Source of the DNA: an uncultured Anaerolinea sp.
GTDB lineage: Bacteria; Chloroflexota; Anaerolineae; JAAEKA01
DNA length: 64,000 nucleotides
Direction of reading: 5' to 3'
Assembly: GCA_964626845.1 (NCBI GenBank)
Contig: CAZVGR010000002.1
Location: 69,051-133,050, forward strand
Below, piece by piece: positions 60,781 to 62,129 of this stretch. A model generated the notes under the pieces. It did no database searches, was not told the DNA's origin, and saw only the letters and a program-made list of their open reading frames with translations. Each line of letters starts with the position of its first letter. Positions within the stretch are counted from its first letter, which is position 1. A program made the position numbers and the translations under genes.

Positions 60781-61641
60781 ATGAGTGAACTGGGTCCGTT
60801 GTCGATCTTTCGCCGGACAGGCGCGGAGCGCTTTCGTTACGATGACGAAGATCTTGGTTTTGACCTTCTAAGCTTCTGGCAGTGGAGCACATCGGACCTG
60901 GTTAGCAACGCCACGCGTGGCGTCCTTGCAGAGTACATCGTTGCGCGCGCCCTCGGTCTGCAGTCTGAGGGCGTGCGCAACGAATGGGCAGCCTATGACC
61001 TCCAAACGGAAGATGGTGTCAAAGTTGAGGTAAAATCGGCCGCCTTCGTGCAAAGCTGGCATCAGGAAAGGCTGTCCACGATTCAATTCCTAGTCCGCAA
61101 GACACAGGCTTGGGATCCAGAAACAAACCTGCGCGTGCAAGAGCGACGACGCCAGGCTGATGTCTACGTCTTTGCCTTGCTGGCCCATCAGGACAAGCAC
61201 AGCATCGACCCGCTGAACGTTGGTCAATGGCAGTTCTATGTGTTGCCAACATCAACGCTTGATGCTCGGCAGCGCAGCCAATACTCGATCACCCTGAAAT
61301 CACTGCAACGCCTGTGTGGCCCGCCAGTGGGCTATGGAGAATTGGCTGAGGCCGTGAAGCGGGCAGCCGCAGTCAATGTACAGGTTGAACACGTCGAGCA
61401 GACATCGATGTTTGTCACTGAAGACAATTTGCACGAGCGCGCCAAACGCGGGAGTCGGAGTCGCTACGACGCGGCTTTGGCCCAGGTACCCAATGCTGAA
61501 CCACTGGAGTACGACAGAATCCAGCCTCCACTGGCAACCGGCAAATCTCGACCAGCTCAGAACCCGGTCATCCACGAGCCGGGGGAAGTTTATCAGGTTG
61601 AAGTGGTGGACAGTGCTGCAAACGCCGAGACCGAGGCGTGA
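60781..61641 (+). CDS. Hypothetical protein with a PD-(D/E)xK-like nuclease signature
   Basis: 287 aa. Ordered acidic residues ..GVLAEYIVARALG.. (E), ..AAYDLQ.. (hD) and ..VKVEVKSAAFVQSW.. (ExK), then ..ADVYVFALL... GC is about 55-58% against a ~67% background. RBS AAGGAG. The start lies 14 nt after the thrS stop. Confidence 0.5.
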   Translation: MSELGPLSIFRRTGAERFRYDDEDLGFDLLSFWQWSTSDLVSNATRGVLAEYIVARALGLQSEGVRNEWAAYDLQTEDGVKVEVKSAAFVQSWHQERLSTIQFLVRKTQAWDPETNLRVQERRRQADVYVFALLAHQDKHSIDPLNVGQWQFYVLPTSTLDARQRSQYSITLKSLQRLCGPPVGYGELAEAVKRAAAVNVQVEHVEQTSMFVTEDNLHERAKRGSRSRYDAALAQVPNAEPLEYDRIQPPLATGKSRPAQNPVIHEPGEVYQVEVVDSAANAETEA

Positions 61642-62129
61642 ACGGTCGCGCCGTAGCCCTCAAAGAGTTCCTCCTCACCGAGCAGCACTGCCCGCCGGAC
61701 TGGCGGCCGTTCGACCTGTACCTGTTTCGTGACGATGAGGTCGTGTTCTACGTGGGGCAGTCCTACGTGGCCTTCGACCGGGTGTGGCGGCATATCCTGG
61801 ATGGCTACAAGGGGCGCTCGGTGGTGGGGCGTTTTATTCACTGTAACTGGCCGGCGTCGATGCGCTTCACGGTCGAGCTGCTCAGCGCACGCAGCCCGCA
61901 GTTCGCCGATCTGGGCCACGACCTCAACGCAGCCGAGCGGCGGCTGATCGAGCGCCATGCCCCCTGCTTCAACGTCTCCCTGAACAGCCAGCCTACCCCG
62001 CTGCCGGCCTGCTATGCCCCGCCCGGCCAGCGCATCACCTCCCCGCGCAGCCTCACCAGACTGATCAGCCAGGCCAGCATGGCCGTGCAGGCCGACAAGC
62101 GCCGCGCCTGGGCGCCAGCAGAAGATTAG
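61638..62129 (+). CDS. GIY-YIG nuclease-domain protein
   Basis: DEVVFYVGQSYVAFDRVWRHI (GIY..YIG-like ..YVG.. with conserved R and H), then catalytic-region AAERRLIERHAPCFN (E ... N). Its GTG start overlaps the upstream stop (GTGA). Confidence 0.6.
   Translation: MNGRAVALKEFLLTEQHCPPDWRPFDLYLFRDDEVVFYVGQSYVAFDRVWRHILDGYKGRSVVGRFIHCNWPASMRFTVELLSARSPQFADLGHDLNAAERRLIERHAPCFNVSLNSQPTPLPACYAPPGQRITSPRSLTRLISQASMAVQADKRRAWAPAED

Follow-up and report, generated by a model that had tools for sequence, protein, structure and literature searches.

The DNA analysed here is a 64,000-nt stretch of contig CAZVGR010000002.1 from an uncultured Anaerolinea sp. (hereafter the window), in which two open reading frames (ORFs), A and B, lie 3′ of the threonyl-tRNA synthetase gene thrS and overlap through the stop/start tetranucleotide GTGA (61638-61641, + strand). 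Both encode members of known nuclease superfamilies, with B falling into an unnamed stand-alone GIY-YIG branch. What is new is that A is a chimeric ORF, in which a nuclease is joined to the tail of an antitoxin, and that the thrS-B slot undergoes turnover of cassettes. In the order of the + strand, the locus comprises the following features.

58159-58233: tRNA-Val, 2.5 kb upstream of the A-B pair
58411..58439, + strand: promoter-like site upstream of thrS, a perfect TTGACA-17-TATAAT (consensus scan)
58938..60764, + strand: thrS (threonyl-tRNA synthetase, 608 aa), the conserved gene that bounds the variable slot on its left
60766-60771, + strand: Shine-Dalgarno sequence AAGGAG, read from the sequence, 6 nt 5′ of GTG 60778 and 9 nt 5′ of ATG 60781
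60781..61641, + strand: gene A, chimeric ORF of 286 aa from ATG 60781, or 287 aa from the in-frame GTG at 60778
60782..61414, + strand: PD-(D/E)xK core of A, similar to T4 endonuclease IV (EndoIV, DenB), a foreign cassette with sharp junctions that is absent from the allele of the related locus L017
60931-60933, 60997-60999, 61027-61029 and 61033-61035, + strand: catalytic codons of A for E52, D74, E84 and K86, respectively
61393..61641, + strand: tail of A (residues ~206-287), left over from the C-terminal part of an antitoxin of the HicB family (117 aa)
61638..62129, + strand: gene B, GIY-YIG nuclease of 163 aa with a GTG start
61716-61727, 61746-61763, 61779-61781 and 61791-61793, + strand: motif codons of B for LYLF, FYVGQS, R48 and H52, respectively
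61935-61937 and 61971-61973, + strand: motif codons of B for E100 and N112, respectively
62174..62202, + strand: promoter-like site TTGTCA-17-TACAAT 3′ of gene B (consensus scan)

The end of thrS is separated from the start of A by 13-16 nt, and the 286-aa product of A is 100% identical to a database protein (P0001). Between the two promoter-like sites the consensus scan found no other on the + strand, and no + strand terminator-like site was seen in a scan between thrS, A and B. From these signals a single thrS-A-B transcript that starts at 58411-58439 is likely, and the site at 62174-62202 is likely to open the next transcription unit; the gene after B encodes a 1417-aa esterase/CBM96/dockerin/GHL15 protein.

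Much of what a first-pass annotation had described at this site holds. Both ORFs and their overlap are present, the tRNA gene is located 2.5 kb away, no methyltransferase, helicase or ATPase is found next to the pair among the ORFs of the window, and the two nuclease folds that had been proposed are confirmed, their motifs (see the invariant positions below) being better than expected by chance. The low GC content attributed to A is likewise correct (0.569), but the background was set too high, at about 67%, the mean of the 64-kb window being 0.647. Similarly, the repeats said to flank the locus exist, and two copies (57561-57660 and 58279-58378) precede thrS, but none of them borders A-B.

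Gene A is a chimera of a nuclease core and a HicB 3′ end

When the last 82 residues of A alone served as a protein query, 13 clusters were returned, all of which are 117-aa HicB proteins of family PF05534, with 57-83% identity and 94-99% of the query covered; a Pfam search with the tail alone gave no family. Since the tail is shared with HicB proteins only, and the other ~2,000 members of the A family end near residue 200 without it, A is a chimera of a nuclease core and the 3′ end of a HicB gene, in its architecture as well as at its junctions. The junctions were placed by BLASTN; MAFFT misplaced the gap when aligning against the empty-site allele. The window is colinear with L017 over 58801-60781 and 61415-62126, and the 633 bp between these blocks correspond to the nuclease core, which replaces 732 bp containing the thrS-PIN spacer, the PIN toxin gene and the ribbon-helix-helix (RHH) head of HicB. 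The window resembles HicB from residue 18 onward and is colinear in DNA with L017 only from 61415 (~HicB residue 43). For L097 the colinear blocks are 58887-61503 and 61653-62126, and for L013 they are 58801-60764 and 61660-62108. No PIN-like sequence is present in the window and the RHH domain is lost as well, so that it contains neither the toxin nor the RHH antitoxin of a type II toxin-antitoxin (TA) system. From the PIN (PF13470)/HicB RHH (PF05534) type II cassette, which is the source of the last 82 residues of A and of the 4-bp overlap with B, the window keeps only the C-terminal part of the antitoxin, fused to the nuclease.

The overlap itself is a property of the HicB/B junction, where it is found in L017, L228, L229 and L232-L235. 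Contigs were checked for three of the 13 tail-matching HicB clusters, and in these, as in L017, the hicB gene is always upstream of B with the 4-bp overlap. This same overlap in the sister genomes indicates that the GTGA of the window was inherited from the antitoxin gene. No overlap exists in L097 and L018, where ~65-90 bp separate A from B.

Base composition separates the two genes. The GC content at third codon positions (GC3) is 0.61 for A as a whole and 0.61-0.66 for its core, compared with 0.93 for thrS and 0.86 for B, and a GC content as low as that of the A core is reached by only 3.7% of 633-bp windows across the 64 kb. Gene A is thus compositionally foreign and gene B native. The PIN-HicB cassette of the sister genome is likewise foreign in composition (GC3 of 0.52 for PIN and 0.58 for HicB).

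Among relatives with a highly conserved thrS (that of the window is 92-95% identical to the thrS of L013, L017, L097, L228 and L233), the slot between thrS and B was found in the following arrangements.

118-bp spacer only: L013-L015 (B of one such relative is 84% identical)
PIN_3 toxin (142 aa) and 117-aa HicB-family RHH antitoxin, the stop codon overlapping B by 4 bp: L017, L228, L232-L235
The same cassette with PIN cut to its last 34 codons (residues 109-142): L229-L231
PIN 4-33 fragment abutting HicB 40-109: L012
DenB-like core and HicB 3′ end, overlapping B: window, L001-L006
DenB-like core and HicB 3′ end, not overlapping B and divergent at the 3′ terminus: L097, L018 (L019 is truncated by the contig end)

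A single site in close relatives therefore displays five states, namely empty, intact TA, decayed TA and two nuclease::antitoxin chimeras. In L229-L231 and L012 the toxin has decayed while the antitoxin was kept, providing snapshots of toxin-antitoxin erosion.

These states suggest how the chimera may have arisen. The slot would once have held a PIN/HicB cassette ahead of a resident B gene. A low-GC gene for a DenB-like PD-(D/E)xK endonuclease of ~205 aa, presumably acquired horizontally, would then have replaced PIN together with the RHH head of HicB, and in-frame fusion of the incoming nuclease to the remaining HicB 3′ end would have created the 286-aa chimera. The chimera would have taken over the translational coupling of the antitoxin to B and is probably read from the thrS promoter, whereas its HicB-derived tail may be a vestige. 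Arrival of the TA cassette before the nuclease is suggested by the tail, since its sequence is contiguous with the RHH domain in HicB, and by the greater diversity of the PIN-HicB allele (HicB tails down to 57% identity) compared with the chimera (at least 77%). The A-B pair is thus most probably the product of a cassette replacement and not a co-evolved two-nuclease system.

The region on the other side of B is also variable. Among genomes with thrS 92-95% identical, synteny breaks right after B, which is followed by FemAB and RNase_T-WYL genes in L013, by RACo, URO-D and B12-binding genes in L228 and L229, and by DUF4922 in L012 and L229, so that B appears to lie at the edge of a flexible region. 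In L007/L029 (contig_26293, 509 kb, 69-6489) a B homologue is found 88 bp 3′ of a large serine recombinase, which ends an HTH_17 / FtsK-SpoIIIE element, so that an integrative element directly borders B on its 5′ side. Insertions may recur at this flank of B.

The two nuclease families

The product of A carries the ordered signature of the PD-(D/E)xK superfamily, with a glutamate on the first core helix followed by an aspartate and the (D/E)xK motif on adjacent strands, within a restriction-endonuclease-like alpha/beta core. Across 38 homologues E52, E84, V85 and K86 are invariant and D74 is nearly so, and the catalytic residues are still conserved in a broadened alignment that includes prophage members. 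The AlphaFold model of A is confident for residues ~15-205 and mostly disordered past ~255, with the end of the tail at predicted local distance difference test scores below 50 (residues 259-284). Comparison of the core with L097 and L018 yields a ratio of nonsynonymous to synonymous substitution rates (dN/dS) of 0.21-0.24, compared with 0.11-0.17 for thrS and 0.08-0.15 for B. The core of A is under purifying selection, and the intact catalytic residues together with the low dN/dS indicate that A is a functional gene and not debris. Its homologues form more than 2,100 clusters at 90% identity, most of them ~200 aa in length. Among the top 120 hits, the four with a source name each represent a different lineage of phylum or class level (Rokubacteria, Dehalococcoidia, Desantisbacteria, Syntrophales), with 62-66% identity to A, and about a dozen clusters (P0001-P0012) reach 77-100%, ten of which are 250-286 aa long. 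The A family is large, solitary, distributed across several phyla and horizontally mobile.

In precomputed Pfam assignments, A and nearly all of its homologues fall into PF26887, Phage_T4_End_IV (E ≤ 1e-5), accompanied for A by a second, faint assignment to PF25941 (PDDEXK_16). When a profile of the bacterial and prophage A family was compared by hhalign with one built from nine T-even DenB proteins, they aligned over 85 columns with a probability of 89% (E 2.2e-6), pairing the helix glutamate, the aspartate, the ExK motif and a downstream aspartate, all of which are invariant in DenB. These comparisons place A in the T4 endonuclease IV family and support its homology with DenB, but not a shared specificity. 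Indeed, Ser176 of DenB, which is needed for dC-specific polarised cleavage (PMC2175332), is situated in a region outside the aligned columns, so that the substrate specificity is not transferable to A. The domains are similar in size (~185-205 aa), but pairwise sequence similarity is undetectable. DenB is an early gene product of a lytic phage, whereas A is encoded on a bacterial chromosome and, in prophages, in the lysogeny module, and the HicB-derived tail is a feature of A. Local NCBIfam and PHROG scans gave nothing useful for A or B (the PHROG DenB-like family matched A with an E of 0.33), and a published classification of DenB as PD-(D/E)xK was not found in a literature search.

Structural neighbours of A are found in the BisI family, and they agree with its weak PADLOC match to mREase_II (E 2e-4), which covers residues 45-103 across the catalytic motif. 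NhoI and Eco15I are modification-dependent restriction enzymes of this family, with PvuII as the closest canonical relative (PMC11347163). Like A, these are small solitary PD-(D/E)xK enzymes without a partner. However, their identity to A is 15-22%, sequence and profile searches of the PDB with A gave no match, and the BisI enzymes use QVK or QIK (PMC11347163) where A has EVK.

For B, the strands and catalytic residues of the GIY-YIG fold are in place, and seven positions (Y28, Y38, G40, R48, H52, E100 and N112) are invariant among 40 homologues. No Pfam, NCBIfam, PHROG or PADLOC model matched B itself, and the family profile is reached transitively: a profile search of 1.8 billion representatives yielded 458 relatives, most of the 150 listed being 140-170 aa long, and several distant ones match Pfam GIY-YIG (PF01541) or GIY_YIG_2 (PF20815), with P0290 above both cut-offs. 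Against PDB profiles UvrC is a marginal hit (E 0.96) on the correct motifs, and among structures B matches T4 endonuclease II (EndoII) best. A tblastn search of GenBank phages with B returned nothing. The 786 homologues of B (~165 aa) derive from Chloroflexi/Anaerolineae, and one is named “GIY-YIG nuclease family protein.” With the stand-alone GIY-YIG nucleases and domains (T4 EndoII, the N-terminal domain of UvrC, the catalytic domain of I-TevI, R.Eco29kI and PD-T4-3) B shares the residues Y, Y, R, H, E and N, but it differs from them by the family-specific motifs CPPxW, NWP and PCFN and by a Pro-rich linker that leads into a C-terminal helix; no recognisable DNA-binding domain is found in B. 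Its dN/dS shows that it is strongly constrained, and its neighbours are ordinary accessory genes (GNAT acetyltransferases, nSTAND NTPases, AlkZ-like glycosylases). B is a resident, compositionally native stand-alone GIY-YIG nuclease, which probably acts independently of A. Two metagenome-assembled genomes carry two B-family copies each on different contigs, UWPOB_ANAER1 (L070, L074) and SMAG_U6947 (L058, L092), so that B is not strictly single-copy.

A and B have independent distributions

Scanning a single genome for each GTDB species identified 98 relatives of B, of which 80 loci were kept. These belong to Chloroflexota, mostly Anaerolineae, with three binned to other phyla. A-like sequence lies upstream of B at three of the 80 (L017, L018 and L019), which are the closest relatives (B 87-90% identical). 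Elsewhere B is preceded by a large serine recombinase or by a flavodoxin-like, zinc-ribbon membrane or RNase_H_2/TPR protein. Conversely, among 130 A loci (80 metagenome loci and 50 viral contigs) B is present only at L097, again at the thrS locus (thrS 95% identical). The 351 neighbours collected from 121 members of the A family fall into 235 clusters without a common site, the 216 neighbours of B into 196 clusters, and no recurrent neighbour was found for either family. The distributions of A and B are thus independent, without the conserved co-occurrence and adjacency expected of a two-gene system, and translational coupling to B is conserved for HicB instead of A.

A single gene inserted with sharp junctions beside a highly conserved gene, with a patchy distribution across phyla, could also be a free-standing homing-endonuclease-like selfish gene, which cuts the A-less allele near thrS and is spread by recombinational repair. 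However, members of the A family occur in hundreds of unrelated contexts without a conserved target site, lack an association with introns or inteins, and in prophages occupy an accessory slot between repressor and integrase. Moreover, homing endonuclease genes usually drift, whereas the A family is unusually conserved (62-66% identity in the named hits; dN/dS of 0.21-0.24). The PD-(D/E)xK homing endonuclease I-Ssp6803I, for example, is intron-encoded and has a fixed target, while the A family is free-standing, in variable contexts and well conserved. This explanation is therefore unlikely, and the domesticated homing-endonuclease remnant suggested by the first-pass annotation finds no support, given the varying insertion contexts and the purifying selection on the core.

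The first-pass annotation had proposed a dedicated two-nuclease module with an anti-phage or abortive-infection role, co-translated as judged from the overlap, and it had itself named a scattered distribution of the two genes as a finding that would refute it. A module in the style of T4 EndoII and EndoIV would fit the 4-bp overlap and the probable common transcript, the remote homology of A to T4 EndoIV and the structural match of B to T4 EndoII, as well as the catalytic residues and purifying selection retained in both genes. Yet the two genes do not travel together: their only joint locus is at thrS in close relatives, confined to one narrow clade, and relatives exist that have B without A, while B is missing from nearly all loci of the A family (3 of 80 and 1 of 130 loci, respectively, combine them). 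Furthermore, the overlap is inherited from HicB/B and missing in L097 and L018, A is foreign and B native in composition, and PADLOC recognises no such pair. A dedicated module is accordingly very unlikely, and the anti-phage role that had been considered for the pair is plausible for A alone. For guilt-by-association this is a caution, as a tight nuclease pair with a 4-bp overlap mimics a defence operon although its coupling is a TA relic, and defence-system screens built on gene pairing could be misled by such cassette relics.

Alternatively, A could have replaced PIN as the toxin of the cassette and be restrained by the HicB tail in cis or by another factor. A indeed occupies the exact position of PIN and is fused to the C-terminal part of the antitoxin, which in RHH antitoxins is usually the toxin-binding region. 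T4 DenB is also toxic to Escherichia coli (PMC1635256). However, the tail evolved for a PIN domain and not for a PD-(D/E)xK nuclease, the DNA-binding RHH head is gone, the ~2,000 other family members of ~200 aa have neither the tail nor a recurrent small partner gene, and in L097 and L018 the distal tail has already diverged or been lost, so that a toxin swap is highly improbable. That A is an inactive, decaying remnant is scarcely tenable, since its chimeric nature, the disordered read-through tail and the frequent decay of cassettes in the slot (PIN remnants in L229-L231 and L012) are outweighed by an intact frame with every catalytic residue present, a core dN/dS of 0.21-0.24 against L097 and L018, and the dozen or so clusters P0001-P0012, which are 77-100% identical and in ten cases 250-286 aa long.

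Candidate functions of A and further features of the window

The contexts of the A family give some indication of what a solitary nuclease of this type may do. In prophage contigs the largest clusters of neighbouring ORFs are one represented by XRE/CI-type helix-turn-helix repressors at -1/-2 (26 ORFs), one of tyrosine integrases at +1 (22 ORFs) and one of serine recombinases at +1/+2 (8 ORFs). This position between repressor and integrase is a classic site for superinfection-exclusion and defence cargo in prophages. The homologues in L180, L183-L185, L189-L204, L222 and related IMG/VR contigs, which are 27-54% identical to A, lie between a Cro/CI-type repressor and an integrase or recombinase, and many of the prophage homologues are within ~1.7 kb of a contig end. 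In metagenomes ~10 of 92 immediate A neighbours match PADLOC models (PDC-S02, type II/IIG/III restriction-modification, mad2/6, IetA and PD-T4-6), more than in the B-neighbour control. No recurrent methyltransferase, immunity gene or ATPase was found near the A family, with methyltransferase and type IIG genes sporadic among the 92 neighbours, and A has no adjacent cognate methyltransferase as would be expected for a type II restriction-modification enzyme.

T4 EndoIV is a dC-specific single-stranded DNA endonuclease that spares modified phage DNA (PMC1635256, PMC2175332), and its expression is lethal in E. coli (PMC1635256). By analogy, A may be a solitary metal-dependent DNA endonuclease, which would be safe for its host by discriminating the state of the substrate, acting on modified or single-stranded foreign DNA. 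Because A has no partner, would have to be host-safe, and has relatives that discriminate DNA modification or strandedness, a type-IV-like single-gene defence nuclease (or one for superinfection exclusion) is a reading with about even prospects. The bacterial and prophage relatives of T4 EndoIV can in any case reasonably be considered for a defence function that is exerted by a single gene and still uncharacterised.

Several points weigh against this account of the origin and role of A. The order of events, TA cassette before nuclease, is a tentative reading of the tail and of allele diversity, and in the lineage of the window A and B are probably still co-transcribed and coupled, so that a secondary interaction may exist. 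The link between A and DenB is visible at the profile level only: hhalign of the A family against the single sequence of T4 DenB gave an E of 0.08, with only the motifs aligned, and a local copy of Pfam had no matches for A or B. Likewise, DenB was not returned when the A model was compared with BFVD by Foldseek, and tblastn of A against GenBank phages retrieved no T-even phage but two hypothetical-protein loci (Faecalibacterium phage FP_Brigit and a faecal phage). The enrichment of defence genes near A is modest (~10 of 92) and derives from crude ORF calls, the nuclease activities of A and B are predictions, and a functional equivalent of DenB would need a restraint on its toxicity to the host.

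A more far-reaching proposal would have A and B of this lineage now cooperating in the manner of T4 EndoII and EndoIV, with B nicking duplex DNA and A shredding single strands, and the A family broadly constituting an unrecognised single-gene anti-phage nuclease. In T4, EndoII (denA) and EndoIV (denB) do cooperate. If this were true for A and B, a defence pair would have been caught at its birth. The likeness of A to T4 EndoIV and of B to T4 EndoII is a curious coincidence in this respect. However, the distribution of the two genes speaks against a designed partnership, and such a secondary cooperation is quite unlikely.

In four loci (L117, L131, L135 and L142) the A-family member is followed by a conserved ~94-aa acidic CxxC...C protein without a Pfam match, and three of these four A members have longer C-terminal extensions. 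The small protein may be a subgroup-specific partner. The idea of a conserved small immunity gene beside the A family as a whole was rejected, this four-member cluster of downstream ORFs being the only candidate found.

Upstream of the locus, the promoter-like site at 58411-58439 is followed by a thrS leader of ~500 nt (within 58380-58937), which ends in 33-nt inverted repeats of GGTAGATTGGT-like units (58839-58914) and had no match in Rfam, T-box included. On the opposite strand, a riboswitch for S-adenosylmethionine (SAM) precedes a 488-aa ORF (56090-57556, − strand), which by eye is aspartokinase-like.

57763-57964, − strand: SAM riboswitch (Rfam RF00162, 74.9 bits)

A repeat of ~100 nt is dispersed over the window (57561-57660, 58279-58378 in inverted orientation, 14889-14988, 15632-15718, 6370-6461 and a partial copy at 45768-45793), with copies 83-95% identical and an internal GC-rich hairpin, GGTGCCGGGCACTT, and it looks like a miniature inverted-repeat transposable element or a repetitive extragenic palindromic element. 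The SAM riboswitch and tRNA-Val lie between two inverted copies. The A-B pair was also considered as a repeat-bounded mobile element and rejected, the flanking matches being short and at chance level only. Another pair of the ~100-nt repeat brackets a low-GC gene at 15018-15476, the product of which has pentapeptide-like repeats. This ORF accounts for one of two further low-GC patches that bear no relation to A-B (15.0-15.8 kb and 33.0-33.8 kb), and the other contains an ORF for a multi-pass membrane protein that by eye is MIP/aquaporin-like.

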